Shown: positions 15,497-40,638, counted from the stretch's first letter. The stretch: 64,000 nucleotides of DNA from Flavobacteriales bacterium (GCA_016704485.1 JADJAA010000001.1:1554824-1618823), one strand, 5' to 3'. The notes: generated by a model not told the origin, from the letters alone. Program-made: numbers and translations.

Positions 15497-15553
15497 TAGC
15501 TGGGCGCAATGGCGTGGTGGATGAAACGGGCTGCGGAAGAGCTATGCATGGAT

Positions 15554-15697
15554 CACAAATTCAACACTCCTTCAATAACCCGAAAACTCTCCAACCCACT
15601 TTCTAGATCTTCCACGACCTCGGTGGTGCATTCCGTGGTCTGCGCTTGAACCAGCGTAGAAAGAATTACAGTTAGGAAGAGTAGGAGAGTTCGCATG
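15554..15697 (-). CDS. Possible 47-aa secreted peptide between the GmrSD and giant helicase genes
   Basis: MRTLLLFLTVILSTLVQAQTTECTTEVVEDLESGLESFRVIEGVLNL, a signal-peptide-like N-terminus. It falls below the ORF-track length cutoff and could be spurious. Confidence 0.2.
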
Positions 15698-15719
15698 GGG
15701 TGGTGCTGGTTGTTGAAAT

Positions 15720-21079: not shown

Positions 21080-21301
21080 GGAGGCGCAATTGACGATATT
21101 CTAAGCACTTGTACAATTACAAGATGCGAATAAGTCGAGCCTATGATGTGCGGCTTGTGATGGTAACTGCCGCGTGTGGCCCTTTACGGCTCTAAAATAC
21201 ATGTGGATACTTCAGAACCGGTCTTCTTGCTGCTAAGAGAATGCTAATTCCTCTGAAGCACTACATTGCGGACATGTGCACCCACACACGCCTGCTATTA
21301 G

Positions 21302-24302: not shown

Positions 24303-25448
24303 TTAGTTCCCCAACTCCCCCCGGAACGCCCCCTGCAACAAACTCCCGAACAAGCCCTCGCTCTGGTGTAAGCTTGCTGCAATGCAGGTGCGCTGCTTTT
24401 GGATGTTATGGAGTAATGTTCCGAACCGTTCCTGCGCTTTGAGTGGAACAAGTGGAATACGCATTCTTCGGATCTCTTCTGTTGTGATATTCTTGAAGAT
24501 GGCTCCCACCGACTTATCGCTGACCCCTACGGCGAGCATATTCAGATAATGGTAAATGAACCTCAGGTCAAAGCCTTTGTCAAAGTCACGAAATCCTGCA
24601 AATCCATCGTGTATGCAACAGTCGACCATCAGGATCGCTGGCAGGCCTGGCTTCCCACTTACAGCCATCACCAAGTCACCACGTTTCATTGGACGACTGC
24701 GCTGTGAGCCTTCAATCGTGAGTGAATCGATCTGAGGTGTCACATACATCCCATCACGGGTCAAGTCTGCAACCATTAGGCGAGGCACGGGACCTCCAAA
24801 GTATCGCGCATCACCCTGTGGTCTTGGACTGCTCCCACGGACGACCTCACACAACGAACCCAAGTCTACAGTTTCCCACCCCCTCTCATTCCGCACCGGA
24901 TCCCCGAACAGCTCCAAGAACAGGCTCTTGGCAAGTTGGTCGTAAACCGCCAAGGTTCGCCGGTCGTTGGCCACCAGCGCCTGCGCCTTGTCCAAGATCG
25001 CCGCGATGCGACGCTGCGTGGGGAGGGCGGGCGGAGCAAAAGGTAAGCTGCGGATATCTTCTATCTTGAAGCCTTTCACCGTCGCTCCGTTTCCACGCGA
25101 AATGAAGTAATTCTCTTTCGCAAATAGAAAGTAATAGAGATAGGTCTGGTCAACCTTGCCATTTATAACAAGCGCCTTCAGATCCTGATTGAATGCCATC
25201 GGCACGTTCGTGATCGACATGCGCCCAAGAGCCATGCGTGTTGCAATCAATAACGTTCCGGCTGGAACTATCTGTGTCGCACAATTATCTACACCGCGTT
25301 CAGTGATCGACTCGTACGTCTCCGAAATATGCTTTGATGTAAGATCCTTCACCGTAGCCCATGGGACATCACCTTCCCAATAGCCCTCGATATCGCGATT
25401 AGGAGTACCACCACCAAGTATCTGGATATAATTGCCCAGCACGCTCAT
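24303..25448 (-). CDS. hsdS: Type I restriction-modification specificity subunit (HsdS)
   Basis: 381 aa with two TRD-like halves and the conserved terminal ...LLQGAFRGELGN. It overlaps the hsdM stop by 4 nt (25445-25448). Confidence 0.8.
   Translation of the reverse strand: MSVLGNYIQILGGGTPNRDIEGYWEGDVPWATVKDLTSKHISETYESITERGVDNCATQIVPAGTLLIATRMALGRMSITNVPMAFNQDLKALVINGKVDQTYLYYFLFAKENYFISRGNGATVKGFKIEDIRSLPFAPPALPTQRRIAAILDKAQALVANDRRTLAVYDQLAKSLFLELFGDPVRNERGWETVDLGSLCEVVRGSSPRPQGDARYFGGPVPRLMVADLTRDGMYVTPQIDSLTIEGSQRSRPMKRGDLVMAVSGKPGLPAILMVDCCIHDGFAGFRDFDKGFDLRFIYHYLNMLAVGVSDKSVGAIFKNITTEEIRRMRIPLVPLKAQERFGTLLHNIQKQRTCIAASLHQSEGLFGSLLQGAFRGELGN
24314..24385. repeat. Direct repeat copy B; this is the genuine 3' end of hsdS
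   Basis: Sequence actcccccc(gg)aacgccccctgca(a)caaa(ct)cccgaacaag(c)cctcgctc(t)gg(t)gta(a)g... matches 23391-23460. The matching copy A is the orphan fragment above. Confidence 0.7.
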
Positions 25449-27004
25449 TTCAACAACGCCTCCAATTCGTCCAACAATTTCACACGGTCGGCGGCCAATT
25501 GGCGCAGGCCGGGTTCTCCCTTTTTGCCGTTGATCAGCTCGGCGGGCGTGGCATACTTCACTTGCTCGTACACCACCTCCTTGTAGCGGTTTATGCTGAG
25601 GTCCCAGTTGTTGGCCTTCAAGTCCGCAAAGGGCACCAGAAAGCTCTGGTCGGTTCGTGCACGTTTGCTTTCACCTTTCGCACCGAAGCGCGCTAGGATG
25701 TCGGCGATGTTGCTTTTCTCGTGCAGCGTTTTCGCTCCCTTGGTGGGCTCGGTGTATTGGAGTTCAAGCTGTTCTTCGGTGAGTTGCGGTGTGCGCTTAT
25801 CATCCAACGAGAAACCGTCGGCACGCATGTCGTAGAACCACACGTTGTCGGTACCGCCGCTATCGGTCTTGGTAAAGATCAGCACCGCGGTGCTCACCCC
25901 TGCATAGGGTTTGAATACGCCGCCGGGCATGCTGATCACCGCTTGCAATTGCTGGCGTTCGATCAGTTCCTGCCGCAGTTGCTTGTGCGCCTTGCTGCTG
26001 CCGAAGAGCACACCATCGGGCACGATCACAGCTGCGCGGCCACCTGTGCGGAGCATGCGCAGGATCAGACCTAGGAAGAGCAACTCGGTCTTCTTGCTGC
26101 TCACTGTGCGCAAGATCGCAGGGTCCACAGCGTCGTGGTCCAAGCTGCCTTTGAACGGCGGGTTCGCTAACACCAGCGAGAAGCGCTCACTGATGTGGCC
26201 TTGCTCTTTGCTAAGCGCATCCTGCCCGATCAGTTGCGGGTGCTCAATGCCGTGCAACATCATGTTCATGGCACCAATGCGCAACATGCTGGAGTCGAAC
26301 TCGACCCCGGTGAAGAGGTTGGTGTTGTAATGCTCGCGGAACTTCTTCTCGTGGAAGCTGTCCGGGTGCGTGCGCCGTATCTCTTCGCTTGCCGCCACCA
26401 AGAAACCGCACGTGCCGGCACTGGGATCGCAGATGGTATCGGTGGGTTGCGGAACCATCAGTTGCACCATCATGCGGATGATGTGGCGCGGTGTGCGGAA
26501 CTGGCCGTTGCGTCCTGCCGTAGCGATCTTGCCCAGCAGGTATTCATAGAGGTCGCCCTTGGTGTCGCGGTCGGCCATGTCCAGCGCGGCGATCATTTGC
26601 ACGGCGCGGTCCAGCAACCGCGCGGAGGGGATCATGAACGTAGCACCCTTCATGTGCTCACTGAACACGCTGCCCTCGCGCCCCATCTGCTTCATGAAAT
26701 CGAAGACCGTGAGGTTATCGTTCTTCGCATCAGGCCGCGTAAAGAGCGCGAACAATGTATCCGGGTCCTTGTCCTTGAAACTGCTCCACCGCAACGCCTT
26801 GTACTTGGGCGGGTAAATGGGATCCTTGATGGGCCCACCGAGCTTGGCGCTCTGCTTCTCTTTGGTGGTCTGGATCTCATCCATCCGGCGCAAAAAGAGC
26901 AAGTAGGTGATCTGTTCGATAACCGTGAGCGGATTGGCGATGCCGCCAGTCCAGAAGGCCTCCCAGAGGCGGTCGACGTCGGAGCGGAGTGTTCCGTTTA
27001 TCAT
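25445..27004 (-). CDS. hsdM: Type I restriction-modification N6-adenine DNA methyltransferase (HsdM)
   Basis: HsdM_N region present. Motif I ICDPSAGTCGFLVAA and motif IV LANPPFKGS are both intact. Confidence 0.9.
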   Translation of the reverse strand: MINGTLRSDVDRLWEAFWTGGIANPLTVIEQITYLLFLRRMDEIQTTKEKQSAKLGGPIKDPIYPPKYKALRWSSFKDKDPDTLFALFTRPDAKNDNLTVFDFMKQMGREGSVFSEHMKGATFMIPSARLLDRAVQMIAALDMADRDTKGDLYEYLLGKIATAGRNGQFRTPRHIIRMMVQLMVPQPTDTICDPSAGTCGFLVAASEEIRRTHPDSFHEKKFREHYNTNLFTGVEFDSSMLRIGAMNMMLHGIEHPQLIGQDALSKEQGHISERFSLVLANPPFKGSLDHDAVDPAILRTVSSKKTELLFLGLILRMLRTGGRAAVIVPDGVLFGSSKAHKQLRQELIERQQLQAVISMPGGVFKPYAGVSTAVLIFTKTDSGGTDNVWFYDMRADGFSLDDKRTPQLTEEQLELQYTEPTKGAKTLHEKSNIADILARFGAKGESKRARTDQSFLVPFADLKANNWDLSINRYKEVVYEQVKYATPAELINGKKGEPGLRQLAADRVKLLDELEALLK

Positions 27005-27017
27005 GGGGTGAAGATGG

Positions 27018-28226
27018 TCAATGTTTGGTGATGGTGGTAAATTCCCATTTAGACTGTCCGTTCAGTTCGACTTGTTTGACTTGGCCGGAAACGAGGTCGC
27101 CATCCACAAGGCTGTGTAGTTTTATCAGATCCTTGTTGATGTAGGCATCGCCAGCATGGGCGTAGGTGTTATCGTTGCGTTTCTTGACCACGACGCGGCC
27201 CAGTTCTTTGGTATCACCGTCGAGTAGGGGAACTCCGTCGCTGCCTACCGCTTCCTCGTGTAGCCAGGTTCGGTTCGCCTTGGGGTCTGGATACTTTGCT
27301 GCGAACTTCTTGAACCAGACCAACACGTCCATGAGCTGGAACACGATGGTGCTCAAGAGGTAAGGCGTTACACCATGCTCGTGTAGTGCTTCGAGATTGT
27401 CCAAGCTGTAATTGGAATCCTCAGCGGTCTCGTCCGCATGCGAGCTTTCGCTGGTTACCCGCAGAATATTGTCCAGTGCATCGGCAACGATCCGGGGCAT
27501 CATCGGGCGGTCACACTTCAAGGCCACCGTGGCCGAAGAACGGCTCGGATAAAGCACGCGCTCGCCCCGCAGGAACAGTGCTGACAAGCGTTGGTTGACC
27601 CTCGGCTTTACAAGGACATCGGGTAGTAACCCGTGCCGATGCGCGGCATAGAAGAAGTGCTCCACTACCTGACGCAAAGGATTCATGAATAAGCGATCAC
27701 TACCGGACTTGTCCCCGCGATCCACAAAGCGCAATGCGTCCATGAACATAGGGTCGGCAACGGCATCCAAATAAGGAACTTGGAGCACTGCGAACACATC
27801 GGCATACCTATCACGAAGCGCTTGCTCGTTGCTTCGATCAACAAGGCTCTGTAGTTCCGCGTATAGGTCCTTCTCGTTCCCTTTCAAGTACCGCCGCTCA
27901 TCACGACGGTTCTTTGTTGCACCTTCGTCAAAGCCGGTATTGATCACATACGGAATATGAATGTTCGCTCCTTTCCATTGGTCCAGATCCCTGCGGGCTT
28001 CATGCAGGTGGTCGATGTCCTCGGTGGGTGAATGTTCATCCACCTGCCCTCTGGCATCGAGGATCAAGGCTTTGAAACGCTTTTCTCGGATCGGTTCCTT
28101 AGCCTCGGCCCAGGTCTTGAACCAAGTCACTTCGAAACCGTGCGCGACCGCCTTAGCAATTTGGGCTTTGGCGTATGCTTCATCGTCATCTACTAAGGCG
28201 ATCGGAACCAGGTCAAACAGTGTCAT
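27018..28226 (-). CDS. Receiver (REC)-like domain protein with uncharacterised C-terminal output domain
   Basis: Likely start MTLFDLVPIALVDDDEAYAKA (acidic pair after beta-1). Putative phospho-acceptor Asp in KALILDARG. Thr in IPYVINTGF. The C-terminal ~300 aa are unknown and contain an Rx4H motif (RQVVEH). The start overlaps the stop of the upstream kinase gene by ~14 nt, and the gene ends 13 nt before the hsdM start. Confidence 0.55.
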   Translation of the reverse strand: MTLFDLVPIALVDDDEAYAKAQIAKAVAHGFEVTWFKTWAEAKEPIREKRFKALILDARGQVDEHSPTEDIDHLHEARRDLDQWKGANIHIPYVINTGFDEGATKNRRDERRYLKGNEKDLYAELQSLVDRSNEQALRDRYADVFAVLQVPYLDAVADPMFMDALRFVDRGDKSGSDRLFMNPLRQVVEHFFYAAHRHGLLPDVLVKPRVNQRLSALFLRGERVLYPSRSSATVALKCDRPMMPRIVADALDNILRVTSESSHADETAEDSNYSLDNLEALHEHGVTPYLLSTIVFQLMDVLVWFKKFAAKYPDPKANRTWLHEEAVGSDGVPLLDGDTKELGRVVVKKRNDNTYAHAGDAYINKDLIKLHSLVDGDLVSGQVKQVELNGQSKWEFTTITKH

Positions 28227-30909
28227 GCGAAATGGGAAGGTCAATGGTGAAGTGGACAAACATTTGAGTGGATACAGCTTCCCGGTCAAATGGTATCCAA
28301 TGATTCTCGTCTATACGTTGATCGCGTTCAAAACTCGATCGGTACTTGTCATCGCTCACTGGCAGGTTACCCGACACGAACTTTCCGCCGTGGTTGGCAA
28401 TGATCCGATCGATCAGATAGCCGCCTATGCCATTGCCCTTTTTCATGTCCAGACGCTTGCCAAAGGTGATGAAGTGCTCATGGGTAAAACCTTCCGGAAA
28501 GGGTTTGCCGTTGTTCTCGATGGTGATAACCAATCGCGTTCGTTGAGGTTCAATACGCGTTGATACCCTCACCCGTACGACCAATTGTTCCTGATCCGAT
28601 CGAAGGCCGTGTTTGGCCATATTGATGAACAAGTTCTGGATGACAAGTGCGAACTGTTGTTGATCGACATGTGCGATCACTCCTTCAGTGGTTTCTAGTC
28701 CAGCTTCACATTCGAAAATGACCATAAGCGCTTTCACCTGGTCGGCAAGTCCGCGCAATTCCGTTCGGAACAGTCGACGAAGGTCGATGGGCACTGGTCT
28801 TAGACTCTCCTTATCTGATCGGATCACCGCATTGATCAATTGAAAGAGACCGCGCATGCGATCCAATCCACTATTCATTGTATCTAGGGCGGTGGTGATC
28901 GTAGACTTTTCAACTGGGCCCAAACTGTTGAGTACTGCATGGATCTCGGCCATGGGTTGCTCCAGAAGCGCCACCACCGGGCGGAAGCTGTGCTCCACTG
29001 CACCAAGGATCTGCCACTCATCAGTGGAGAGGCCATGCTGTTTTTCCTGCCTAGCGATCTCCTCCTTCTTCGCCAATAGAATGGATTCCTTCCGTTCGCG
29101 AACAATGCGCAGTTGATCCTTGAGTTCGGGTAAGCGAACCCGAATTCTCAGAACGTCTGCTTTGGCTATGAAAGCGATCGTACTTCCTTGGTGGTATGCG
29201 TCGAGCTGATCTTGGATCGTGGGCGTTCTTAGTTCTGTTGCGAGGTATTCGGTATTAGCACGAGCCGCATCCACACGGAACATGAATACATTGCTTCCCA
29301 CGGCGATCGGTCCATCTACCGGGTCGAATAAGGTCGGCTTCAACTTTCCGCCCACCCGTGCAAGTAGCAGTGCTGGCACATCCAATCTCTTCAGTCCCTT
29401 CTTGACAGAACCGGTTTCATGTTGCCCATCACGCGCCGTGCGCCTCATGTCGAGGACATCCGTTGAAAGCTCGGAGACCTGGAAGAGCGGCAGACCGGCG
29501 AGGTCGCCCATGGAGAGGATATCGTCCGAAAGCACGGTGCCGAGTTCAACCACGTCCACACCATCCGCTTCGGCCACGATATGGGCTTGTTGAAGCAGGC
29601 TGGCAAACCGACTCATGCTCCAAGACACATGCTCGTCGGAACGGATGTCAGAAACCTTCACGTCCAAAACACCTTGTAAGGTATAAGTGCTATCCAACGC
29701 CTGCAGCACGCTGCTAACATCGAGTGTTATTTCGGATCGCGTCTTGTATGTGACATGCAAACCCGCATCCACGAATCGGACAGGCGCATTCGTTGGCCGT
29801 GATCCATTCAAAACAATGATCGAGGTCTTTATCCCTGAGTAGGGTGTGAAGGATCCTGCTGGCAACGAGATCACTGCTTCGAGCAACCCTAGGTCAAGAA
29901 TCTGTTTGCGTAGATGCGCTCTGTTGATGCCGAACAACATACTCTCGGGCACAAGGATCACCGCCTTCCCCTCGGGTGCAAGCCGCTTGAGGATCTGGTT
30001 GATCGCTATCTCATAGGGTTCTATCGCGCGTAGCCTTCCTTCCTCTTTCACTCGACCACCGAAAGGTGGTGCACTAATGCAATGCGTATACTTCTTGTTG
30101 GAAGCACCGGGTGCTGATGGTTCGTTCAAGGCGGCGTTCAGGTCTGCCCCGAGAATACGTGCTTGCAGCGTATTGAAGAAGAATGCGAATTGGTTGAAGA
30201 ATACCGCGTCGAGCTTTACAGAATGTGGCGCACGCGCTGCGAGCACTGCTGGCAATACGCTCGCATCCGCAGCTGGGTCGAATACCTCTTCCACGTCTCC
30301 GAGCAGCCGCGCCATAAGCATTGCAACGGACCATGGCGTACAGAACTGGCCCATGTGACTATCGCGCAAGAGGAGGCTACGCATTTCTTCCACATACTCG
30401 ATCGGTTCCAAACCCGCTGATGCCATGAGAAAAAGCTCAGTTTGTACTGGGCTTGTTGCCAGTGCGCCGCCATTTTTAAGAAGATACGAATGCTGCTCCC
30501 CAAAGTCCTTAAACTCCTCTGCCAATTCATTCAAGGTGGACCATAATCCTTCTCCTCTTTGAGCGATCGTAGGCAACACTCCTGCTGGGCGCACGGCCAA
30601 GGCATAAATGAGTGCCAGCTCCAAGCCAACGGTCTGCGCGAAGGGCATGGATCGTAGCGCATTGCGCAATTCCCATGCGTGGGCCTGAAAAAAACGGACC
30701 CGGTTCAACATACGTTCTGGATCCAACTGTAAACTACCGTCATCGGATATACTAACACGCCCACCAGACAACTCCACCTCAGCAAGCAAGCTCGATGGCT
30801 CAACGTCCTTCTGGCTCAATAAGACCTTGACGATATTACAGACACCCTCCAAAGTATCCGAGCCGTTCTTCAGGCGAAGGGCACATATTATGGCGTCTAT
30901 CAGTTTCAT
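28213..30909 (-). CDS. Fusion protein: degenerate N6-adenine MTase-like domain + HsdS-like TRD + histidine kinase (HisKA + HATPase_c)
   Basis: MTase fold present: GQFCTPWSVAMLMARLLG...VFDPAADASVL (the glycine-rich SAM loop is degenerate) and ISAPPFGG (motif IV with Asn/Asp replaced by Ala). TRD-like stretch: VGSNVFMFRVD...STIAFIAKADVLRIRVRLP. H-box: AVEHSFRPVVALL. N box: VIQNLFINMAKHG. G boxes: IENNGKPFP and GNGIGGYLIDRIIANHGG. Confidence 0.75.
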   Translation of the reverse strand: MKLIDAIICALRLKNGSDTLEGVCNIVKVLLSQKDVEPSSLLAEVELSGGRVSISDDGSLQLDPERMLNRVRFFQAHAWELRNALRSMPFAQTVGLELALIYALAVRPAGVLPTIAQRGEGLWSTLNELAEEFKDFGEQHSYLLKNGGALATSPVQTELFLMASAGLEPIEYVEEMRSLLLRDSHMGQFCTPWSVAMLMARLLGDVEEVFDPAADASVLPAVLAARAPHSVKLDAVFFNQFAFFFNTLQARILGADLNAALNEPSAPGASNKKYTHCISAPPFGGRVKEEGRLRAIEPYEIAINQILKRLAPEGKAVILVPESMLFGINRAHLRKQILDLGLLEAVISLPAGSFTPYSGIKTSIIVLNGSRPTNAPVRFVDAGLHVTYKTRSEITLDVSSVLQALDSTYTLQGVLDVKVSDIRSDEHVSWSMSRFASLLQQAHIVAEADGVDVVELGTVLSDDILSMGDLAGLPLFQVSELSTDVLDMRRTARDGQHETGSVKKGLKRLDVPALLLARVGGKLKPTLFDPVDGPIAVGSNVFMFRVDAARANTEYLATELRTPTIQDQLDAYHQGSTIAFIAKADVLRIRVRLPELKDQLRIVRERKESILLAKKEEIARQEKQHGLSTDEWQILGAVEHSFRPVVALLEQPMAEIHAVLNSLGPVEKSTITTALDTMNSGLDRMRGLFQLINAVIRSDKESLRPVPIDLRRLFRTELRGLADQVKALMVIFECEAGLETTEGVIAHVDQQQFALVIQNLFINMAKHGLRSDQEQLVVRVRVSTRIEPQRTRLVITIENNGKPFPEGFTHEHFITFGKRLDMKKGNGIGGYLIDRIIANHGGKFVSGNLPVSDDKYRSSFERDQRIDENHWIPFDREAVSTQMFVHFTIDLPISHDTV

Positions 30910-30971: not shown

Positions 30972-32234
30972 TCAAGCGACTTTCTCCAGTCGGTTTGTCG
31001 GCAGAAGTTGGGCAGCCATACGATCCATGACCTCCCATTCCGGACGTGTGTACGAGTTGCTCTCCGTGACCACCGGGATCCTGAATTCGCCCATGGCATC
31101 CTCGCGCATAGCCCATTGATCCTTCTGGTCGTAGAGCTTTGTTCCGGGCAAAAGCATCAGCGGCCAAGCCTTAACGTCCCTGCAGCCTTTGGATAAGAGG
31201 TGGTCGATACTACGCTGGAAACTTTCCAAGGTCTGTCCGGGCAACCCGTAGATCAAACTCACTTCGAAAGGAATCTCGCGCTCCACAAGCTGTTCAATAG
31301 CAGCATCGACAAGATCCATCCGATTGGCGCGGTCAATTTTCTTGGACACTGCATGGTCCGTGGTCTGCAACCCGAACTCCAAGTGGAAGTTGGCTTGCGT
31401 ACAAAGGTCCAGGAATGCATTAACCTGTTGGCCTCGGATATTCTCAAAGCGCGATTGCAGGGTGAAGGTGGAGCGCGTACGGAGTTGAACGATCTCTTGC
31501 ATTATATCCAGGCACTCCTTCCCAGCGTTGAAGATGGGGTCGAGTATGTTCACGCGTTGCACACGATGTTCAGTGAGAAATGCTAACTCTTTAAAGACTT
31601 TATCCAGTGGGTGCTTATGCACGCGGTGAGTGGCGAGGTCGCGGTGTGCGCAAAATGAACACCGGTAGGGGCAGCCGCGTTTGGTCTCCAACCGTACCAT
31701 ACCGGCTCCCATTGGTACAGGCAATTCGCCAGTGAGATACGGTGAGGCCAGTTGTGTGAAGTCCACTGGTACGTTCACGAACACGGGTTCGTCGGCATCG
31801 AGATGGTCCGTCAATTCGGCAAAGGCTTGTTCGGCTTGTCCGGAGATGAAGACCTGGCAATCCGGATACCGACGCAGCAATTCTGCTCGGTTCCCGTAGG
31901 TGACTTGATACCCTCCGAGGACCACCTTGCCAAGGAACCCAAGACGACGAAGCAATGCGATGATGCCATTGGTGAGGTACTCGTTCCAGATGTAAGCCGA
32001 GAGCGCGATGGCGTTAAAGCGGCTCACATCAAGCGCCGCGAGTTGCACTTCGAATTGCTCGGGTGTGGCCGTGCCGCCGTGTTCGAGCATGTTGATCGAG
32101 AGGTGTTCCACGTGCATCTGTCCACGCAGCCGTTCATTACTCCGTTGGTGTGCCAAGAGAGATGCGATCGCCAAGGGCTTGGTGATCTCACCGTGCCGGA
32201 TCAGGTCGAAGGATATGATGAGCGTGTTCGTCAT
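30972..32234 (-). CDS. B12-binding-domain radical SAM protein
   Basis: N-terminal cobalamin-binding-like Rossmann region followed by a radical SAM cluster motif (MVRLETKRGCPYRCSFCAHR). The ~420 aa are counted from the probable start MTNTLIISFDL. Confidence 0.8.
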   Translation of the reverse strand: MTNTLIISFDLIRHGEITKPLAIASLLAHQRSNERLRGQMHVEHLSINMLEHGGTATPEQFEVQLAALDVSRFNAIALSAYIWNEYLTNGIIALLRRLGFLGKVVLGGYQVTYGNRAELLRRYPDCQVFISGQAEQAFAELTDHLDADEPVFVNVPVDFTQLASPYLTGELPVPMGAGMVRLETKRGCPYRCSFCAHRDLATHRVHKHPLDKVFKELAFLTEHRVQRVNILDPIFNAGKECLDIMQEIVQLRTRSTFTLQSRFENIRGQQVNAFLDLCTQANFHLEFGLQTTDHAVSKKIDRANRMDLVDAAIEQLVEREIPFEVSLIYGLPGQTLESFQRSIDHLLSKGCRDVKAWPLMLLPGTKLYDQKDQWAMREDAMGEFRIPVVTESNSYTRPEWEVMDRMAAQLLPTNRLEKVA

Positions 32235-32343
32235 TGGTCCTCGCCACCAAGGGTCTATATGGTTGGATAATCGCTCAACCAACGAACTTCCCTATGGCAA
32301 CGGACCAAAAGTCCCGGTCACCTGTGCAGTCTATCTGCACAGT

Positions 32344-33354
32344 TCATTTCGCGTAGTTCTTCTTCATTTCCATCACCCGCAAAAGCAGCGCTTGGCGTAG
32401 TTCTTCCGGCGCAATAACCTGTAGCCCTTCTCCATAAGATAACAACAAGGCTTGTAGCTCGTAGTTCAGCTTCACTTCTAAACGAATAGTCGCGCCGCCG
32501 TCTTTTCTCTTCACTACTTTCTGCGAACCGTGTATAGGCTTTGACTCCAAATAAGGCCAAAGTCTATCCGTGACTTGGATCTTGACAACAACAGCTTCTT
32601 GATCCGCAGGTACACTTACACCAACAACATCCTCAAAATACTCCGTGAAATCCACCTCATCGTTCGGTATGTATTTCACCTTACTGGGTACAATATCCCG
32701 GATCCGGTCCAAGGCCATATTGACAATACGCCCCTCTTCCTCAAGACCAAAAACAAACCAACGGTTGTTATACTGTTTCAAGTAATACGGATGGAGCAAC
32801 ACAATGCTAGGCGCATTTTGCTTGAAGCCTTGGTAAGATATTTCCAAGGCTTGCTCATTGATGATCGAATGAAATAATGTGGTAATGTGCTCGGCACCTT
32901 TCAAATACGGGTTCTGCTCAAACTCGATGACCTGAGCAGCCCCTTGTTTCAGCCCGAAACCAGCTTCCAACCGAGCAACTAATTCATCTACCCATTCAAA
33001 CTGCGGCATGCCCTTAAATCGGCTCAGCGTTAAGAGCGCCTCCTTCAATTGTTCCGCTTCGCTCTCGTTCAGCGGTCGCTTGTTGATAGAGAATTCAAGG
33101 TCACTGTACCGGTAAAAAGTACGCTTTCCGTCTTTGTGTTTCTCCAGCGGGATAGCCCATCCTTGTTCGCTCTCCATGTACTTGATGTCCTCGAAAACTT
33201 GGCGGCGGCTGATGCTTGCACCTGCTCCGGTGAACTCCTCCAACGCCATGTTGCAAGCTTCCATCAGGTCTTCGATGAAATACTCGCGCCCACGGTTCGC
33301 AAAGCAACGGTCCATTGTCTGATAGCGAATAAGGGCATTCTTATTTACGGGCAT
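32344..33354 (-). CDS. WYL-domain transcriptional regulator (wHTH-WYL; BrxR/CapW-like)
   Basis: The ~336-aa size and architecture match BrxR/CapW regulators. The WYL-like core is LLHPYYLKQYNNRWFVFG, with an N-terminal HTH region. It sits at the head of a same-strand defence gene block. Confidence 0.65.
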   Translation of the reverse strand: MPVNKNALIRYQTMDRCFANRGREYFIEDLMEACNMALEEFTGAGASISRRQVFEDIKYMESEQGWAIPLEKHKDGKRTFYRYSDLEFSINKRPLNESEAEQLKEALLTLSRFKGMPQFEWVDELVARLEAGFGLKQGAAQVIEFEQNPYLKGAEHITTLFHSIINEQALEISYQGFKQNAPSIVLLHPYYLKQYNNRWFVFGLEEEGRIVNMALDRIRDIVPSKVKYIPNDEVDFTEYFEDVVGVSVPADQEAVVVKIQVTDRLWPYLESKPIHGSQKVVKRKDGGATIRLEVKLNYELQALLLSYGEGLQVIAPEELRQALLLRVMEMKKNYAK

Positions 33355-33493: not shown

Positions 33494-33895
33494 CAGCTGG
33501 GTGGTAACCTGCACCAAGCTTGATGGTACCACACACCAAGCTTAGTGGTACCCTGTGCCAAGCTTAGTGGTACCTTGCACTAAGCTTGATGGTACCCTGC
33601 ACTAAGCTTAGTGGTACCCTGCACTAAGCTTAGTGGTACTCTGCACTAAGCTTAATGGTACCCTGCACCCAGTTGGGTGGTACCCTCCACCCAGCAGGGT
33701 GGTACCCTGCACCCAGTTGGGTGGTACCCTGCACTAAGCTTAGTGGTACCCTGCACTAAGCTTAGTGGTACTCTGCACTAAGCTTAATGGTACCCTGCAC
33801 CCAGTTGGGTGGTACCCTGCACCCAGTTGGGTGGTACCCTGCACCCAGTTGGGTGGTACCCCGCACTAAACTTAATGGTACCCGACACCAAGCTC
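33494..33895. repeat. 22-bp tandem repeat array (~18 units) with two unit types and a 6-unit higher-order repeat
   Basis: Unit T1 is ctgcactaagcttagtggtacc and contains palindromes ACTAAGCTTAGT and GGTACC. Unit T2 is ctgcacccagttgggtggtacc. The pattern (T1 T1 T1' T2 T2' T2) occurs twice. No ORF is present. Confidence 0.9.
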
Positions 33896-33983
33896 AATAG
33901 TGCATTCCATTGATCTTGAGGGAGTTCACCTGAACCAGCATTGCGCTTGTGCCTCGGGAACTTGAGGAAGTAAAAGGTGAAAT

Positions 33984-34206
33984 GGTCCGCTATCTATACC
34001 ATACTACTATAGGGCACATTGAACCTTAGTCTGGACTTCCGCCTTCGGAACTGCATTCGCTGCCAGATGATCATTGGGGTGCAATTATCCCAAACCTATA
34101 CCATATTACTATAGGGGGCATAAGCCTCCATCTCCGGCTCGTGAACTTTGGAGGTAAAGATGGTGTGATTTGACCTACTACCTATACCATATTACTATAT
34201 GGTGCT
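33984..34206. promoter_or_regulatory. Three dispersed copies of a ~21-bp dyad-symmetric site (cCTATAccatattacTATAGGg) spaced ~90-110 bp apart
   Basis: Copies at ~33986-34008, ~34094-34116 and ~34182-34204. The 6-bp inverted arms CCTATA/TATAGG are operator-like. Confidence 0.5.
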
Positions 34207-34287
34207 TTGCACCGTGCGCCTCGTGGTGCACACTTGTGGTTCAGAACTGCTTCATGTAGGCCTGGTGCAAGAGGCTGTATTTGTTCC

Positions 34288-34750
34288 ATTGGTACATGGC
34301 CTTGTCCCGTAAGTACATGTACTTGTGCCTTTGGTACATGTACTTGTCCCGTGAGTACATGTACTTGTCCCGTAAGTGCATGTACTTGTCCCGTGAGTAC
34401 ATGTACTTGTCCCGTGAGTACATGTACTTGTCCCGTAAGTACATGTACTTGTCCCGTAAGTACATGTACTTGTGCCGTTGGTACATGTACTTGTCCCGTA
34501 AGTACATGTACTTGTGCCGTTGGTACATGTACTTGTGCCGTTGGTACATGTACTTGTGCCGTGAGTACATGTACTTGTGCCGTGAGTACATGTACTTGTC
34601 CCGTAAGTACATGTACTTGTGCCGTTGGTACATGTACTTGTCCCGTAAGTACATGTACTTGTCCCGTAAGTACATGTACTTGTCCCGTAAGTACATGTAC
34701 TTGTCCCGTAAGTACATGTACTTGTGCCGTGAGTATGTGTACCTGTACCA
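34288..34750. repeat. 21-bp tandem repeat array (~22 units) built around the perfect palindrome GTACATGTAC
   Basis: Units are cccgt(a/g)agtacatgtacttgt and gccgttggtacatgtacttgt. All six frames are open across the array because the period is 21. Confidence 0.9.
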
Positions 34751-35457: not shown

Positions 35458-36426
35458 TCAAGCCTTTATGAACTCGTTCACAAAAGCTTGTACAAATTGC
35501 TTGGCTAAAGCAGAGTAAGGCTTGGTCGGCTCTGTCAGTTGCATCAGCAATTCCACCTCTTGCTCGATCATCGCCTCAATTGTTCCTGTGGTCTTTTTTA
35601 CAAGTTTGTTCAATGTACGTGTTGGTACTTTATCCTTGAATGATCTGATATCCTTACCGATCTCGTTCGATAGGTCGATCAATTTCAAGATCATCTCAAA
35701 ACGCATTTTTAATCGCAGAATGTATTCTCTGCGCATATCGACCAACCCCTTTCTATTCAAGCCGTAGATCTCAATGGAACGGATCGCTTTTTGCCAATGG
35801 ATCTCCCTTTTTATCACGTTCTCTGATGAGGGCAAAGCAATGGCCTTCATTACTCCTGAGTCATCGTATTCCAAGTATTTGCTAGGTTCGTCCGTACAAG
35901 GGTTCAACAACAAACATTGTTCGCCTGAAATATCGAACAGCGGCGCACTCGCACGCATTGTTTCATCAAACAATGGAAAAGAGTTTGCCTTTCCTTGTTT
36001 TAGCTTTTTCCATTGATAGGACCCATCTATGGGGTTCTTTCGATACACATATTGATAGCGCGCTCTATTGCAGTCTATGCATGAAGGGAGTAGATTATCC
36101 CATTCCATTGCGAGCTTAGCATATACACCTACTTTAGTTTCGGTCTTGTTCGTCAATTCTACGAGCACTTCGGATTTGGGTCTGAAATGCTCAATATCCA
36201 GCGGTTGTGTGCGCGTGTAAGGTGATTCGCAATATGCACATTTACCATGGAACATAAGCTCCAACAACTCAGGCACTTTTTCGTGCTTGTAAAGCTTGAA
36301 ATCGGGCTTTAGGTCCTTGTGGAAATCGCTTCGAAGCCATGCTTCCACCTCTTCCTTTTCTTTGTTGAAGGCATCCGAGGTTATGGTAAGTGCCTGCGGG
36401 GCATTTACGCGTTTTCGTTTGATCAT
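35458..36426 (-). CDS. HNH endonuclease of the TIGR02646/PtuB type (Septu-like nuclease component)
   Basis: HNH motifs GKCAYCESPYTRTQPLDIEHFRPKS...WDNLLPSCIDCNRARYQ. 322 aa. Lies immediately downstream of the ATPase gene. Confidence 0.7.
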   Translation of the reverse strand: MIKRKRVNAPQALTITSDAFNKEKEEVEAWLRSDFHKDLKPDFKLYKHEKVPELLELMFHGKCAYCESPYTRTQPLDIEHFRPKSEVLVELTNKTETKVGVYAKLAMEWDNLLPSCIDCNRARYQYVYRKNPIDGSYQWKKLKQGKANSFPLFDETMRASAPLFDISGEQCLLLNPCTDEPSKYLEYDDSGVMKAIALPSSENVIKREIHWQKAIRSIEIYGLNRKGLVDMRREYILRLKMRFEMILKLIDLSNEIGKDIRSFKDKVPTRTLNKLVKKTTGTIEAMIEQEVELLMQLTEPTKPYSALAKQFVQAFVNEFIKA

Positions 36427-36434
36427 TGAAGAGC

Positions 36435-38822
36435 TCAGTTGTTCAGGCGCCAGGAAGCATCCGTTAAAGCCTCTATTATCTTCTTAGTGGGTTTGGGAAA
36501 TCGTACGTTGGTCGGTGACTTCATCAAGTGCTCATCGATCAGCCTCAACAAGTACATATCACGCCGACTACTACCGAGAATGCTCTTTCTGTTGAGTCGT
36601 TCATGTAGATCCTTCAGTTGTGCCTTACCCGAATCATCTAACGCCGATGCCTTCGCTATGAGGTTGTAATAGCGGTCAAAGAATTCAGCTGTGCGCGGGT
36701 CCAGGGTTGTACTTAATCCGAATAATTCTGAGGTAAGGAGCTGGTCGGAACGTAAGCCAGCCGGCGAATCCATGTCGTCGTGTACTGTAGCCATGGAAGG
36801 GTCGTCCACATTTCTCTTGACCAATGCTACTTCACCAGCACCCAGCCCATGCAGGCATAGTGGCTCATGGGTGCTCGCGATGAATTGGATAAGCGGAAAT
36901 GTCTGTTCCAATCTTCTTAAGATGCTCATGCGCCAACTCGGGTGCAGATGTGCACCGATCTCATCAATTAGTACCACGCCTCTAATTTGATGCGTATCCG
37001 TTGGATTGCCTGCCATTATATCACAGGCTAGACCAACCATGGTCTTGTAACCCGCACTAAAATGCTTTAAGCGGGTGAATGACCCGTTCACGAAAAGCCC
37101 GAATTGTGTTGGCTTGTTGTTTTCAAATTGAAAGTCGAGACGTGTAGAATTATCTGTAAGATCCAGCAGGTCCTTCAAGGCCACACAAACATCGAAGAAC
37201 TGCTGTTGATTCTTTACCACTATGGTACGTAACCACTCTTCGGCATCTACCATGGGATAGAACGGGTCAAAGAGGTTCTGGATGTTCTTATTCACTCCCC
37301 TTTTCTCTAACAGATCAGAACTCTTGCCTTTTTGCGGCAGCAATCGAACAGGCCCGTATGCACGAAGAAATATATTCGGGACCTCACCTTGCTCCCATTT
37401 TAATCCGCTATTCGTGATGTTCACTACGATAGGATCTGTTCGCTGATGAAAGTAGACTTCAATTCTACCTGACGTAGCTCCACGCCTCAAGCTAGTGCTG
37501 AAATGCTCCTTCATCTTACTCAAGGCTTTCTTGCCGCTGAGTATCAATGCAAGTGCTTCGAGCAGCGAACTTTTTCCTGACCCGTTCTCACCCAGCAGCA
37601 TTTTCCAACCGCTGTGTCGAAAGGTTTCCTGTTGTGGAGATTCGGAGCCGTTTTCGTCGATCGTCTTCCGGCGTTCCTCTTGATTGCCTCCCGCTGTTTC
37701 CGTGTTCAAGTCTAAGTTCAGTTCACGTTCTGTGTCTACTAGGTCTTTCGGGCGTTCTTGGGGGATCAAGAATACAGCCTTCTCGAAGATCCTGTAATTC
37801 TCAACTATTAATTTGCTAATGGTCAGCGCTTGATGCGCGACTTTCTCCTTGGACGGCGCATTCTCTGTGGCGGTTTTCGGAGGAGTTCTTTGCGCCTCGG
37901 AACTCGTCTTCTTTGGAGACTCCTTATTAGCGCGTGTTGATCCCGGTTTCGTACGCGCTCCGGTCTCAGCTTCTAATAAGGACCCAGGCTTATTGAGCCC
38001 TTTGCTTATTGTTTCGACGTGCAGGCCGTCGCCTTGAATGAGGATTTTTAGTCCGAAGTCCTCCTTAAGAACATGGTTACTCAGATTCCGCATTGGACTT
38101 TGCGGGTCTATCAGTCCTTTCAAGAAGTGATCTTCTTCTACGGTTCGAGGTAGTTTCTCACCCTTTTTTTTAAGAACCAGAGACTTTGTCAAGTCGCGAA
38201 CTCGGTGAACCATATCACTCCTTCTATTGATGGCGGATTTCCGGTTCAGGTCCAGAGTTTCAATGGTCACCTCGGCTCGTCGCTTCTGCATGTGCCCTAA
38301 AGTGGAACGAGGCTTTATCATTCCATTAGATGAATAGTCGAAGTACTCCTCCGGATCGTCTTCATAAGGATTCAGCAAATACGGTTCTTCTTTCTCGAGC
38401 GCACTCCCCCGAGGCTGGTCATCAGCATGCTTGATAGGAACACGTTTTCCGGCGATGGGAAACTGTGCTCCCTTTGCAAAACTGCACTCATTGCATATGG
38501 GTAGCATGTTCTGCCAATCAAACAATAGCCACCAATAGTGGTCGCCAACCTGCTCATTTGGTTCCACTTTTACCGGTCGGTACAGGTCGATGTGTACCGT
38601 CTTTTCATTCAAGGGTGCTTCGCAATACGCACATGCATTATTGGAGGTTTCCAGAAGATCTCGGTTTACATCACGAGAATACTGTGGAGCCTTGTGTCTT
38701 ATCTGGCTTCGCTTCTCTAAAGGTTGCGCATAAAACTTCCGAAGTTCATTGAACGTCTTCTCTCCTTCCGTACTGTACTGTAGGTCTGGTGGAGATACTT
38801 TACTTCGGTTCAGTTTTCTCAT
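36435..38822 (-). CDS. AAA_21/ABC-type ATPase (PtuA-like) with an additional N-terminal HNH-like domain
   Basis: N-terminal HNH-like region NACAYCEAPLNEKTVHIDLYRPVK...WQNMLPICNECSFAKG. A low-complexity linker is followed by Walker A MLLGENGSGKSSLLEAL, Walker B VVLIDEIGAHLHP and FIASTHEP. Confidence 0.7.
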   Translation of the reverse strand: MRKLNRSKVSPPDLQYSTEGEKTFNELRKFYAQPLEKRSQIRHKAPQYSRDVNRDLLETSNNACAYCEAPLNEKTVHIDLYRPVKVEPNEQVGDHYWWLLFDWQNMLPICNECSFAKGAQFPIAGKRVPIKHADDQPRGSALEKEEPYLLNPYEDDPEEYFDYSSNGMIKPRSTLGHMQKRRAEVTIETLDLNRKSAINRRSDMVHRVRDLTKSLVLKKKGEKLPRTVEEDHFLKGLIDPQSPMRNLSNHVLKEDFGLKILIQGDGLHVETISKGLNKPGSLLEAETGARTKPGSTRANKESPKKTSSEAQRTPPKTATENAPSKEKVAHQALTISKLIVENYRIFEKAVFLIPQERPKDLVDTERELNLDLNTETAGGNQEERRKTIDENGSESPQQETFRHSGWKMLLGENGSGKSSLLEALALILSGKKALSKMKEHFSTSLRRGATSGRIEVYFHQRTDPIVVNITNSGLKWEQGEVPNIFLRAYGPVRLLPQKGKSSDLLEKRGVNKNIQNLFDPFYPMVDAEEWLRTIVVKNQQQFFDVCVALKDLLDLTDNSTRLDFQFENNKPTQFGLFVNGSFTRLKHFSAGYKTMVGLACDIMAGNPTDTHQIRGVVLIDEIGAHLHPSWRMSILRRLEQTFPLIQFIASTHEPLCLHGLGAGEVALVKRNVDDPSMATVHDDMDSPAGLRSDQLLTSELFGLSTTLDPRTAEFFDRYYNLIAKASALDDSGKAQLKDLHERLNRKSILGSSRRDMYLLRLIDEHLMKSPTNVRFPKPTKKIIEALTDASWRLNN

Positions 38823-38823
38823 C

Positions 38824-40638
38824 TTAACTATGTGCTATTCTGTGGAACGTGTTCGCCAAATAGTGCTTCGGGTTAGTCCTGGCGATCAGGTCGAATTGTG
38901 CTTCGCTCAGGCCGGCCAGCATATTGGCATAGAGCTCCTTTTCTGATAGGTGGTTCCTCACGACAAAAAAGTCTGTACCGAACAGGACCCGTTCACCGAG
39001 TTTCTTCACTGAATGGTCGATCGTCTTTTTCAGTAACGGTTGTATCCACGGATCGTGCAATATGTAACTGATATCTGCATAAACGTTCTCATAGCGCAAC
39101 ATCATACTGCAAATGATCGTGTACCAGTCAGCTTCCATCCAGTGAGCGTAGACACGTGTCCATTGGATGCGCTTGTGTTCGTTGTCATAATACGATCGAT
39201 GAAATAATCCGCTTTCAGCATGCAGGTTCAGATCTTGGTTGTACTGGTCATTATCGGCTTCTAAATGTCGTTTCCATTCATCAACACCACCAAAATGTGC
39301 CAAGCAGATCTTCAATTGAGAAAGTGATCGGAATTTTTCATCGGGACCTTTTTCGAACAACGTTTGAATTCGGGGTTGGCAGCTCACGAGGTGCTCCCTC
39401 AAGAGGTCATCATCCAGCAGGCAGAGGTAGTTCAATGGATGTGTGTAGTTCTTTTGAAAGTCGATTCCGCGAAGTTCCAACAGGTCAATGGGTGCGATCA
39501 CCGTATCGTCATGTGCGTCCTCTATTCCGGTTGAACGCTTGAAGACAGGATGCTTTGCCATTTCATCAGTGATCTTGTCTCGGGAATATATTGTGCCATG
39601 CACGCAATGGGTCATGATCGGTAAACCTTCCTGAGCTGCATACGCCCACACGGGCAATAGGTCTTCATCGAAAGGATAATAACCTAAAGCCGGGTAGATC
39701 TTGAATCCGCAGCAACCATTGCTTAGATACTTCTGGACTTTACATTCAAGCAAGACTACTTTACCGTATTCTACTTTCCACTTGAAGAAGTCATCCTCTT
39801 CACGAATTCGGCGTGGATCAATGAAGATGAAAGGCAGTATTTGATGTCCATGATCTTCACCTTTGGTAAGTTTTACAAGCCCTTCCATTTGTTTGTGGAA
39901 ATCACCTAATCGGTGGACCTTCCCCGCACCCATGTATTTCATATCCATTGGTAGAACAATGAATTTGGTTTCGGCTGGGTACTGGGCCCGGAGTTTTTGA
40001 AAGAGTAGACTTAGTCGCCTTTGGTCATCACCGGTTTTCGCACTTTTCGTCTCGTAACCATAAGAGCTGAAGCGTGCGATAAGTACGTATCGCTCCAAAA
40101 GGTCCATGTACTCCGTAGCAGGAAAGCTCTTGATCATTGGAACAAACTTTTGTAGAAGGAACCAGATCTGTCTTCGAACGGCTGGGATGAATGCAATAAT
40201 TGCTGCTACGAATATGGTCTTGATCGCCCAGTGTAATTCATGAAAGTATAATTTATACTTTACAAGTAACGCCAAGAACGCCGCGATATATTTCGACCCG
40301 CCATAGAAGGTGCTTTCAACCAAAACTTCATAAAGGAATAATAACACATAGATCGTAACGATCAAATTAAACGCACCTCGTACAAACTTCAAGAAGCTGT
40401 TTCGTTGGATCCTGTTCTGCGCCTTTACCTTGTTTATGCGTATGGTTTCTTGTGCCGGTTCATACCGCTCGGCATACTTCCGTCGGTTGCACTTCACGTA
40501 AAGTTTCATGAAGTAATCCATTCGCGCCCACTTGTACAACGGCCACGGAAGAATACCCTTTGCATGCTCTGGAGGCACGTGATAGTTGTTGAACAAGTGC
40601 ACGTGGCAGTTCACTATGGGGTCCTTCACTTTACTCAT
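38824..40638 (-). CDS. Amidohydrolase-family (TIM-barrel metal-dependent hydrolase) protein with inserted hydrophobic membrane-like segments
   Basis: N-terminal metal-binding motif HxH (CHVHLF). A hydrophobic insertion follows (FNLIVTIYVLLFLYEVL, IAAFLALLV...IFVAAIIAFIPAV). The C-terminal region is ...LFGTDFFV. Its stop lies 1 nt upstream of the PtuA-like start. Confidence 0.6.
   Translation of the reverse strand: MSKVKDPIVNCHVHLFNNYHVPPEHAKGILPWPLYKWARMDYFMKLYVKCNRRKYAERYEPAQETIRINKVKAQNRIQRNSFLKFVRGAFNLIVTIYVLLFLYEVLVESTFYGGSKYIAAFLALLVKYKLYFHELHWAIKTIFVAAIIAFIPAVRRQIWFLLQKFVPMIKSFPATEYMDLLERYVLIARFSSYGYETKSAKTGDDQRRLSLLFQKLRAQYPAETKFIVLPMDMKYMGAGKVHRLGDFHKQMEGLVKLTKGEDHGHQILPFIFIDPRRIREEDDFFKWKVEYGKVVLLECKVQKYLSNGCCGFKIYPALGYYPFDEDLLPVWAYAAQEGLPIMTHCVHGTIYSRDKITDEMAKHPVFKRSTGIEDAHDDTVIAPIDLLELRGIDFQKNYTHPLNYLCLLDDDLLREHLVSCQPRIQTLFEKGPDEKFRSLSQLKICLAHFGGVDEWKRHLEADNDQYNQDLNLHAESGLFHRSYYDNEHKRIQWTRVYAHWMEADWYTIICSMMLRYENVYADISYILHDPWIQPLLKKTIDHSVKKLGERVLFGTDFFVVRNHLSEKELYANMLAGLSEAQFDLIARTNPKHYLANTFHRIAHS

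Follow-up and report, generated by a model that had tools for sequence, protein, structure and literature searches.

We analyzed a 64,000-nucleotide stretch of DNA from a Flavobacteriales bacterium (GCA_016704485.1, JADJAA010000001.1:1554824-1618823; hereafter, the window), in which genes for a WYL-domain transcription factor and a radical S-adenosylmethionine (SAM) enzyme (rSAM) stand at the head of a block of two-component and restriction-modification (RM) genes, all on the minus strand. The first gene encodes a 336-aa regulator with winged helix-turn-helix (wHTH), WYL and WCX domains (32344–33354) and is followed by genes for the 420-aa rSAM (30972–32234); an 898-aa kinase fusion that combines an HsdM-like methyltransferase (MTase), an HsdS-like target recognition domain (TRD), a HisKA-like domain and HATPase_c (28213–30909); a 402-aa response regulator (RR) with a receiver domain (REC), a helical domain and a C-terminal S1/CSD-like domain (27018–28226); hsdM (25445–27004; Pfam and PADLOC MTase_I, 1.7e-168); and hsdS (24303–25448; Pfam and PADLOC Specificity_I, 1.9e-66). 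From the WYL gene to hsdS, successive genes are separated by 109 bp, 62 bp, a 14-bp overlap, a 13-bp gap and a 4-bp overlap. A preliminary description of this DNA had proposed the order WYL, rSAM, MTase-histidine kinase (HK), RR, hsdM, hsdS; the WYL and rSAM open reading frames (ORFs) lie on the minus strand where it had placed them, and the closely spaced order is real as far as hsdS. A type I hsdR gene with an N-terminal DUF4145 domain (17621–21079, minus strand; Pfam and PADLOC REase_I, 2.7e-160) lies beyond a 265-aa gene and an opposite-strand cyclase gene, so that the type I RM gene set identified with PADLOC and Pfam is complete. The window is 99.95% identical to JGI metagenome contig Ga0073899_10000029, with 10 differing positions, and the order WYL, rSAM, MTase/HK, ~400-aa protein, hsdM, hsdS is repeated in a Flavobacteriales metagenome-assembled genome (MAG), in which the rSAM is 76% identical. 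An Rfam scan of the whole window yielded no match.

Conservation of this arrangement was surveyed in a metagenome scan anchored on the 402-aa protein (62 loci, scored with phmmer). The MTase/HK fusion lies directly 5′ of the response regulator in 54/54 loci. Among the 35 loci with enough flank, 30 carry a close WYL homolog on the same strand 5′ of the MTase/HK gene, and in 29 of these 30 WYL-headed loci at most 79 bp separate the two genes. Of 43 loci, 34 carry an hsdM gene 3′ of the response regulator, in 27 of them within 1.5 kb, and hsdR lies 3′ of hsdMS in four related cassettes (L103, L109, L122 and L125). At E ≤ 1e-10, the profile of the 402-aa family matches 875 cluster representatives (50% identity). 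The neighborhoods of three WYL homologs, 54–62% identical, display variations on the same theme: WYL, four small genes, MTase/HK, a 392-aa protein and hsdM; WYL, MTase/HK, a 396-aa protein and hsdM; and WYL, an AAA_15/21 ATPase, a 343-aa protein and hsdMSR. Judged from gene content and order, a cassette that consists of the WYL gene, an operator-like box described below, the MTase-like/TRD/HK fusion, the REC-helical-S1/CSD regulator and hsdM-hsdS(-hsdR) was found in ~40 loci and is widespread, mostly in Bacteroidota. The proposal that the WYL gene heads the block is thus borne out both by its recurrent position directly 5′ of MTase/HK and by the box past its stop codon. Neither PADLOC nor NCBIfam holds a model that covers the cassette.

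The WYL protein matches the Pfam models WYL (3.3e-10, 40.3 bits; cut-off 21.8) and WCX (1.7e-11, 44.7 bits; cut-off 23.9), and no match to a Pfam HTH model was obtained. An AlphaFold2 (AF2) model of the protein, built on 26 homologs (pLDDT 77), shows a three-helix plus beta-hairpin wHTH at residues 5–83 (helices 5–17, 27–42 and 50–61, strands 70–75 and 78–83), a helical linker, the WYL beta-domain and WCX. In Foldseek searches of the PDB, the model aligned over its full length with DriD (8tp8, 1e-14) and PafBC (9fnd, 5e-13), and also with BrxR (7qfz, 1e-7) and CapW (7tb6, 1.4e-7); the alignments with DriD and BrxR span ~340 columns, and the C-domain of DriD superposes on the model with a template modeling (TM) score of 0.69 and a root mean square deviation (rmsd) of 3.5 Å. 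A phmmer search of all PDB sequences with the WYL protein retrieved DriD-type chains only (E ~0.06), and BrxR, represented among the sequences searched by 7qfz and 7t8k, was not retrieved at E ≤ 1. The protein has 5976 homolog matches; those with names belong mostly to Flavobacteriales and other Bacteroidota.

Pfam, the AF2 model and Foldseek concur that this is a full-length wHTH-WYL-WCX regulator, an architecture shared by BrxR, CapW, DriD and PafBC. The more specific label of a BrxR/CapW-like regulator of BrxR size fared less well: comparison with the BrxR and CapW structures confirmed the shared wHTH-WYL-WCX architecture, with matches at ~1e-7, but the nearest structures are those of DriD and PafBC, no BrxR sequence match was found, and 336 aa corresponds to the size of DriD (~326 residues), not of BrxR. 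Picton et al. (2022) delineated the BrxR family by BLASTP (E < 1e-5 to BrxR(Efer)) and found it to be 97% proteobacterial (PMC9122601). Because BrxR is unreachable by sequence, the WYL protein is outside that family as defined, despite the shared architecture. It had also been considered that the protein might lack a wHTH and be of the PafBC type; a likeness to PafBC was indeed seen, but DriD, PafBC, BrxR and CapW all share the wHTH, and its presence here removes the decisive part of that objection. DriD and PafBC, WYL-domain activators of Caulobacter and actinobacteria, respectively, are the best structural matches and have the same full-length architecture; they control DNA-damage regulons, whereas the gene described here adjoins a defense operon, and the sequence similarity to DriD is marginal. 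BrxR and CapW, which are associated with bacteriophage exclusion (BREX), cyclic oligonucleotide-based antiphage signaling (CBASS) and defense islands, resemble our protein in that its gene likewise stands at the 5′ end of a defense operon. Members of the BrxR family are inverted-repeat-binding repressors that co-localize with defense systems, and the R-BOX1 and R-BOX2 repeats of BrxR (PMC9122601) are comparable to the inverted-repeat box that adjoins the WYL gene. In contrast to BrxR, the clade analyzed here belongs to Bacteroidota, its members are ~40 residues longer, and the box is found 3′ of the regulator gene, not only 5′.

This box, the operator-like palindrome CTGTGCAGATAGACTGCACAG (32322–32342, no strand assigned), begins 2 nt past the WYL stop codon and has a TGCA-N7-TGCA core at 32325–32339. 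The exact GTGCAG-N5-CTGCAC sequence occurs at a single site in the 64 kb, where 0.19 sites would be expected even at one mismatch, and it is also present 3′ of the WYL stop codon in L001, L012, L088 and L116; the box adjoins divergent WYL genes in L032, L036 and L037. Alignment of 30 loci yielded the consensus CT(A/G)TGCA(C/G)-N5/6-(C/T)TGCACAGAT, followed after ~11 nt by nAnnTTTG, in which the GC, GCA and TTTG positions are invariant, the A of nAnnTTTG is nearly invariant and the distance of this element from the palindrome is fixed. In the window, the downstream element is GACTTTTG (32306–32313, minus strand). The -7 promoter consensus of Bacteroides and Bacteroidetes is TAnnTTTG, and we infer that GACTTTTG is a Bacteroidetes-type -7 element that would form the promoter of the rSAM and downstream genes. 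The palindrome would then occupy the place of the -33 element, implying a WYL-controlled promoter with the rSAM as its first gene. PafBC-type promoters have the binding site at the position of the -33/-35 element, which is likewise where the palindrome would sit. A scan for sigma-70 promoters and terminators, which does not model Bacteroidetes promoters, showed no enrichment.

That the palindrome is instead a terminator or attenuator hairpin of the WYL gene appears improbable. The copy in the window could fold into a hairpin of 8 bp with a loop of 5 nt, and a consensus scan flags it as terminator-like on the plus strand. Across the 30 loci, however, 74% of the cells in the arms are paired, the same as in shuffled controls, with no covariation or compensatory changes, and in most loci the arms match at only 6/8 positions; because there is no covariation beyond shuffles, the box is conserved as a sequence, TGCA...TGCA, and not as a hairpin. 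Nor does a T-run directly follow the stem on the coding strand, and the same motif is found 5′ of divergently oriented WYL genes. In those loci (L032, L036 and L037), the close WYL homolog is divergent from an rSAM, NYN-rSAM or NYN-kinase-rSAM gene set and heads another three-gene operon encoding 385-, 326- and 384-aa proteins; the intergenic regions of L032 and L037 contain two exact GTGCAG-N5-CTGCAC boxes, and that of L036 one exact box and a degenerate copy.

The rSAM ORF (30972–32282, 436 aa) opens at a TTG codon, and all homologs start at the ATG at 32234, which gives a protein of 420 aa. It matches Pfam Radical_SAM (3.3e-13, 50.6 bits), and the cysteines of its CxxxCxxC motif (C188, C192 and C195) are invariant in 12 diverse homologs. 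The best matches among solved structures are CysS (1.8e-31) and TokK (4.7e-22), over residues 59–402, and the nearest NCBIfam model is the KedN5 family (1.2e-32, 113 bits versus a cut-off of 700). In common with CysS, TokK and KedN5, the protein has the CxxxCxxC motif after a putative N-terminal Rossmann-like domain; in contrast to these enzymes, which are 620–680 aa long and encoded in antibiotic biosynthetic clusters, it lacks their C-terminal domain, scores far below the family cut-offs and is not encoded in such a cluster. Of the earlier label of a B12-radical SAM enzyme, the radical SAM part is secure, but the B12-binding domain (PF02310) scores 19.9 bits, below the 32.1-bit cut-off, and its assignment, based on this match and on homology to CysS and TokK, is tentative; several homologs carry a precomputed PF02310 match. 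We describe the enzyme as class-B (cobalamin-type)-like. In the PADLOC scan, the only match was PDC-M51A (6.6e-117, 388.9 bits; ORF residues 19–428 of 436, profile positions 6–413 of 420), and there was no match to a viperin model. In public sources, the protein has only a generic annotation, as a YgiQ/UPF0313-type COG.

Among cassettes, the rSAM lies between the WYL and kinase genes only in the window and in L001/L008, L095, L096 and L116. A DUF2130 gene, encoding an Mrr-like, nuclease-like protein, stands ahead of the rSAM in L116, L012 and L009, four unrelated small genes occupy the slot between WYL and kinase in L088, and in most cassettes this slot is empty. These comparisons show the rSAM to be an accessory insert at the WYL|kinase junction in the lineage of the window and not a core component, and it is this insertion that would make it the first gene behind the WYL-controlled promoter. 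The position had been called unusual, and indeed only the closest relatives of the window have the rSAM there.

Beyond the cassette, we examined the neighborhoods of the rSAM family in 82 genome loci from one-per-species genomes. About 70 of these have no MTase, kinase or RM gene nearby. The only recurrent neighbor is PDC-M51B, a ~200-aa protein present in ~22 loci, chiefly of Vibrio, Moritella, Endozoicomonas and Planctomycetota, which accounts for 16 of 136 nearest neighbors. This partner matches the PADLOC models PDC-M51B (3e-87) and VakA and Pfam Thymidylate_kin (6e-24), and reaches 82.5 bits on the deoxythymidine monophosphate (dTMP)-kinase equivalog (cut-off 83.25). The loci linked to PDC-M51B often also contain ParE-like and TPR-CHAT genes. 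A hidden Markov model of 26 partner proteins found no ORF for a dTMP-kinase-like partner in the window, and the genes that neighbor the rSAM do not match the PADLOC PDC-M51B model. A neighbor-joining tree of the rSAM places the kinase-linked clades in basal positions, with the clade of the window nested among kinase-less members from Bacteroidota. No close homolog was found in phage or plasmid collections. The neighbors include ParE-like, TPR-CHAT, NYN, DUF2130, AriA/PtuA-like ATPase and WYL proteins; these are scattered defense-type families, and no recurrent biosynthetic neighborhood was detected in 76 loci (the 136 nearest neighbors). The idea that the rSAM homologs might belong to an unrelated biosynthetic cluster thus found no support among these neighbors.

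The PDC-M51 pair is found in a six-gene array, TPR-CHAT (~897 aa), a ~307-aa protein, a ~194-aa protein, ParE-like (~106 aa), rSAM and dTMP-kinase-like, in Vibrio, Moritella, Cognaticolwellia and others (L050, L053, L057–L060, L063 and L084). In Vibrio, the array adjoins a CyRepA1-type replication protein, suggesting a mobile element, and in L084 it lies between hsdR and hsdM. Three candidate relationships were considered and dismissed. The genes 3′ of the rSAM in Desulfobacterales loci (clusters c15 and c14), suspected to be a kinase and response regulator in a third such arrangement, had an hhalign probability of 1.6%, and NCBIfam and Pfam identified only TPR; the ~260-aa genes 5′ of "solo" Bacteroidota rSAMs share no homology with one another and do not form a partner family; and Ophion, in which a viperin-related rSAM has PHP and phosphoribosyltransferase partners, is a different system.

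The rSAM of the window matches the PDC-M51A component of PDC-M51 end to end, but its partner PDC-M51B is not in the window, and the rSAM gene forms part of an operon with WYL, two-component and type I RM genes. The pairing of PDC-M51A with a dTMP-kinase-like protein resembles that of viperin with CMPK2, and for this reason our best guess, by analogy, is a nucleotide-modifying antiviral role. Viperins are linked to nucleoside monophosphate (NMP) kinases (bioRxiv 10.1101/2023.09.13.557418); as with prokaryotic viperins (pVips) and NMP kinases, and with human viperin and CMPK2, the rSAM family is linked, in a defense context, to a kinase of the thymidylate/cytidine monophosphate-kinase family. 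Viperin belongs to a different rSAM subfamily, however, and the protein described here, which is homologous to CysS and TokK and has a putative Rossmann domain of the class-B-like type at its N-terminus, is not a pVip. Furthermore, the chemistry of viperin is a dehydration, whereas a methyl transfer would be expected here. A literature search for PDC-M51, VakA and the combination "radical SAM + thymidylate kinase + defense" found no description of this rSAM family.

The kinase fusion matches Pfam N6_Mtase and HATPase_c (35.3 bits), and its residues 472–640 match type I S-subunit models of PADLOC. Its MTase core is 26% identical to that of the neighboring HsdM. Active N6-adenine MTases are expected to contain motif I, (D/N)PxxGxGxF, and motif IV, (N/D)PP(F/Y/W). 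The fusion of the window has DPAADAS (within FDPAADASVL) where HsdM has DPSAGTCG, and APPF (within SAPPF) where HsdM has NPPF, so it departs from both motifs, a loss that is common to all close relatives. Because most of the distant homologs retain NPFAGLASF and NPP(F/Y), the family is, by its sequences, ancestrally an active-looking MTase that lost its catalytic residues in the lineage of the window, and the MTase module of the fusion is probably a reader and not an enzyme. On the kinase side, 47 fusion homologs share the H-box His, N-box and G2-box (..(K/E)H(T/S)..(R)P.., ..NLxxNAxK(Y/H).. and G.G(L/I)GG). The earlier "MTase-HK" label is therefore accurate as to the fusion but not as to MTase activity motifs, given the degenerate motifs I and IV in this lineage.

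In the response regulator, D13, D14, D57, T97 and K115 are invariant, and the AF2 model (pLDDT 80) shows a receiver domain with a (beta-alpha)5 fold. Foldseek retrieved the REC domains of PmrA, KdpE, RstA and PorX, and those of PmrA, KdpE and RstA superpose with TM ~0.7 and rmsd ~3.7 Å. Pfam Response_reg is detected in 16 of 22 family members and S1CSD-TOTE-2, the C-terminal beta domain, in 19 of 22. The helical domain has no detectable relative, and the protein matches no PADLOC model. A HEPN/DUF4145 assignment of the helical domain was rejected because its alignments with the HsdR N-terminus and with a HEPN-like neighbor, although they coincide with the motif region, lack significance (probability 0.2%). 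The labels HK and RR both hold, in view of the conserved kinase boxes (H, N and G2) on one side and of the REC fold with its invariant residues on the other. Phosphotransfer from the kinase to the regulator is predicted on the basis of their strict adjacency in the surveyed loci.

Type I RM is present here as hsdM, hsdS and hsdR, and the fusion itself contains HsdM-like and HsdS-like modules. In PADLOC and NCBIfam, it matches generic MTase_I and S-subunit models and, weakly and far below the cut-off, MAD2 and MAD5 of the methylation-associated defense system (MADS). The type I RM and MADS models of these libraries lack an M/S-like-histidine kinase fusion paired with a REC-S1/CSD regulator. We also considered whether the TRD of the fusion shares a target half-site with the neighboring HsdS TRDs and found no similarity.

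Taken together, the evidence leans toward a WYL-gated cassette that carries an rSAM cargo altering nucleotides alongside a DNA-recognizing phosphorelay. The WYL protein, of a dimeric type, would bind the palindrome at the place of the -33 element and, upon ligand binding by the WYL domain, repress or activate all downstream genes; by analogy with DriD, PafBC and CapW, this ligand might be single-stranded DNA or resemble a nucleotide. The weakest step of the proposal is the activity of the rSAM, which, with SAM, a [4Fe-4S] cluster and probably also cobalamin, would modify a nucleotide, C-methylation being the most plausible reaction; because the kinase partner is absent, it would draw on the cellular nucleotide pool, and the resulting compound would impair the synthesis of phage nucleic acids. 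In an independent, DNA-recognizing phosphorelay formed by the kinase and response regulator, DNA would be read by the catalytically degenerate M/S-like module, D57 of the regulator would receive a phosphoryl group from the kinase, and the helical and S1/CSD output domains would then act on nucleic acid.

Several observations weigh against this reading. The dTMP-kinase-like partner is absent not only from the window but also from most Bacteroidota rSAM loci, and PDC-M51 is a predicted system with candidate status. The B12-binding match of the rSAM is sub-threshold, and some class-B-like radical SAM enzymes are something other than methylases. No catalytic fold is recognizable in the output domain of the response regulator, and the sequence fits either sign of WYL regulation, repression as by BrxR or activation as by DriD and PafBC. 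Moreover, two Chitinophagales MAGs (L066 and L067) carry a distant rSAM (32% identity) just 3′ of this kinase/RR pair, and among the fusion homologs compared (L088–L153, L001, L066 and L067), the motif IV Asn is lost in 7/7 rSAM-linked fusions versus 11/40 others, a nominal difference (Fisher p = 5e-4) drawn from two independent lineages only. This second capture and the motif IV loss hint at a functional tie that the independent-cargo reading leaves unexplained.

In one alternative, the rSAM would modify DNA together with the cassette: the catalytically dead M/S-like module would recognize DNA and perhaps flip a base, and the rSAM would install a non-canonical mark, e.g. a C-methyl, as a label of self DNA or in place of the lost N6-methylation. 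We regard this as rather unlikely. Motif I is degenerate as well in 6 of the 7 rSAM-linked fusions, the rSAM joined the kinase/RR pair twice independently (in the clade of the window and in L066/L067), its closest solved relatives are methylases, and the cassette is built around type I RM. On the other hand, with two lineages the association is limited, and degenerate motif IV is common without an rSAM too; most family members have no MTase, kinase or RM gene nearby, and the only gene that recurs beside them encodes a nucleotide kinase. Phage genomes, in which pathways for DNA hypermodification abound, yielded no close homolog of this rSAM. Either DNA or a nucleotide may be the substrate.

It is very unlikely that the rSAM belongs to a sensing circuit and is not an effector, with a nucleotide or other small molecule as its product, to which the WYL domain or the histidine kinase would respond. 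WYL domains are ligand sensors (PMC9122601), and the rSAM is the first gene behind the putative WYL-controlled box and directly 5′ of the kinase gene; yet in 29 of 35 cassettes WYL abuts the kinase without an rSAM, so that neither sensor needs it, and most rSAM family members have no WYL or kinase gene nearby. Of the three functions that had been suggested for the rSAM, namely modification of DNA, modification of a nucleotide or generation of a signal for the kinase, the last appears the least likely because the rSAM is accessory and its family is usually paired with a dTMP-kinase-like gene, with no sensor kinase or response regulator. Equally doubtful is that the rSAM is a metabolic or biosynthetic passenger of a defense island with no role in defense. 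The generic YgiQ/UPF0313-type annotation, the candidate status and lack of a literature description of the family, and the frequent "solo" occurrence with non-homologous neighbors would fit a passenger, but the neighbors that do occur are ParE-like, TPR-CHAT, NYN, DUF2130, AriA/PtuA-like ATPase and WYL proteins, with no recurrent biosynthetic family in the 76 loci. The gene is also part of an operon-like block, 62 bp 5′ of the kinase gene and behind a predicted regulator-controlled promoter, it is kept in this setting at 76% identity, and the authors of PADLOC independently flagged the family as a defense candidate.

WYL-headed defense islands are already known, and PDC-M51 is catalogued but uncharacterized; in the literature and model libraries searched, we found no description of the cassette, of its box or of a kinase-less rSAM as the first gene. 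We propose, tentatively, that the WYL-gated DNA-reading phosphorelay is a widespread defense module and that the rSAM provides viperin-independent antiviral nucleotide analogs or a DNA mark. If so, M/S-like recognition fused to a histidine kinase and signaling to a REC-S1/CSD regulator would have been bolted onto type I RM in hundreds of clusters, and DNA reading by the kinase, through a module akin to restriction enzymes, would couple recognition of the restriction type to a phosphorelay, a connection that is rare in phage defense. The rSAM would make C-methylated nucleotides or a DNA mark, installed by radical chemistry, in place of the N6-methylation that the sensor has lost; in the former case, it would represent a second radical-SAM antiviral chemistry beside viperin and a source of nucleoside analogs. 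The conserved box offers a testable handle on WYL gating of defense in Bacteroidota.

Upstream of the WYL gene, Tandem Repeats Finder and a repeat finder identified a tandem array (33501–33894, no strand assigned) that ends ~150 bp 5′ of the WYL start codon and consists of 18 copies of a 22-nt unit, GGTACCAC followed by either TAAGCTTA or CCAACTGG and then GTGCAG. Each unit contains GGTACC, a 14-nt palindrome (two variants, both palindromic) and GTGCAG, which corresponds to one half of that operator-like box. The array is covered by no ORF and matched by no Rfam model; it may be a regulator-binding array, and its membership in the system is uncertain. A second array (34292–34746) consists of 21.7 copies of the 21-nt unit GTACATGTACTTGTCCCGTAA, with a 10-nt palindrome, and is open in four reading frames, which makes the 158–193-aa ORFs called there doubtful. 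Between the two arrays (33977–34213) are three copies of a ~49-nt repeat containing CCTATACCATAyTACTATAGGG. Arrays also precede the WYL gene in L088 (3689–4040; 16.8 copies of the 21-nt unit ACGCGTAAGGCCTTACCGATT, with palindromes ACGCGT and AAGGCCTT and without GTGCAG) and in L105 (5480–5690; five copies of a 41-nt unit); their sequences are unrelated to the arrays of the window.

Further genes surround the block. At 21273–23375 (plus strand), the public contig has an intact gene for a 700-aa membrane protein with a guanylate/adenylate-cyclase domain, which in the window is split by three 1-nt indels (at 21314, 21952 and 22032) into 253- and 458-aa ORFs, reflecting either a decaying variant gene or sequence error. 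The region 5′ of the repeats (35458–40638, minus strand) is a lower-GC block (0.44–0.48) that encodes a Septu-like 795-aa PtuB(HNH)-PtuA(ATPase) fusion, a 322-aa PtuB-like HNH protein and a 604-aa amidohydrolase-domain protein. On the other side, 3′ of hsdR (10664–17534, minus strand), are genes for a GmrSD-like DUF262 protein (604 aa) and a 1610-aa double helicase of the DEAD-box and UvrD types; very similar giant helicases are encoded 3′ of the cassette in L104 and 3′ of the rSAM in L055, and an 1827-aa helicase closes the L001 block.

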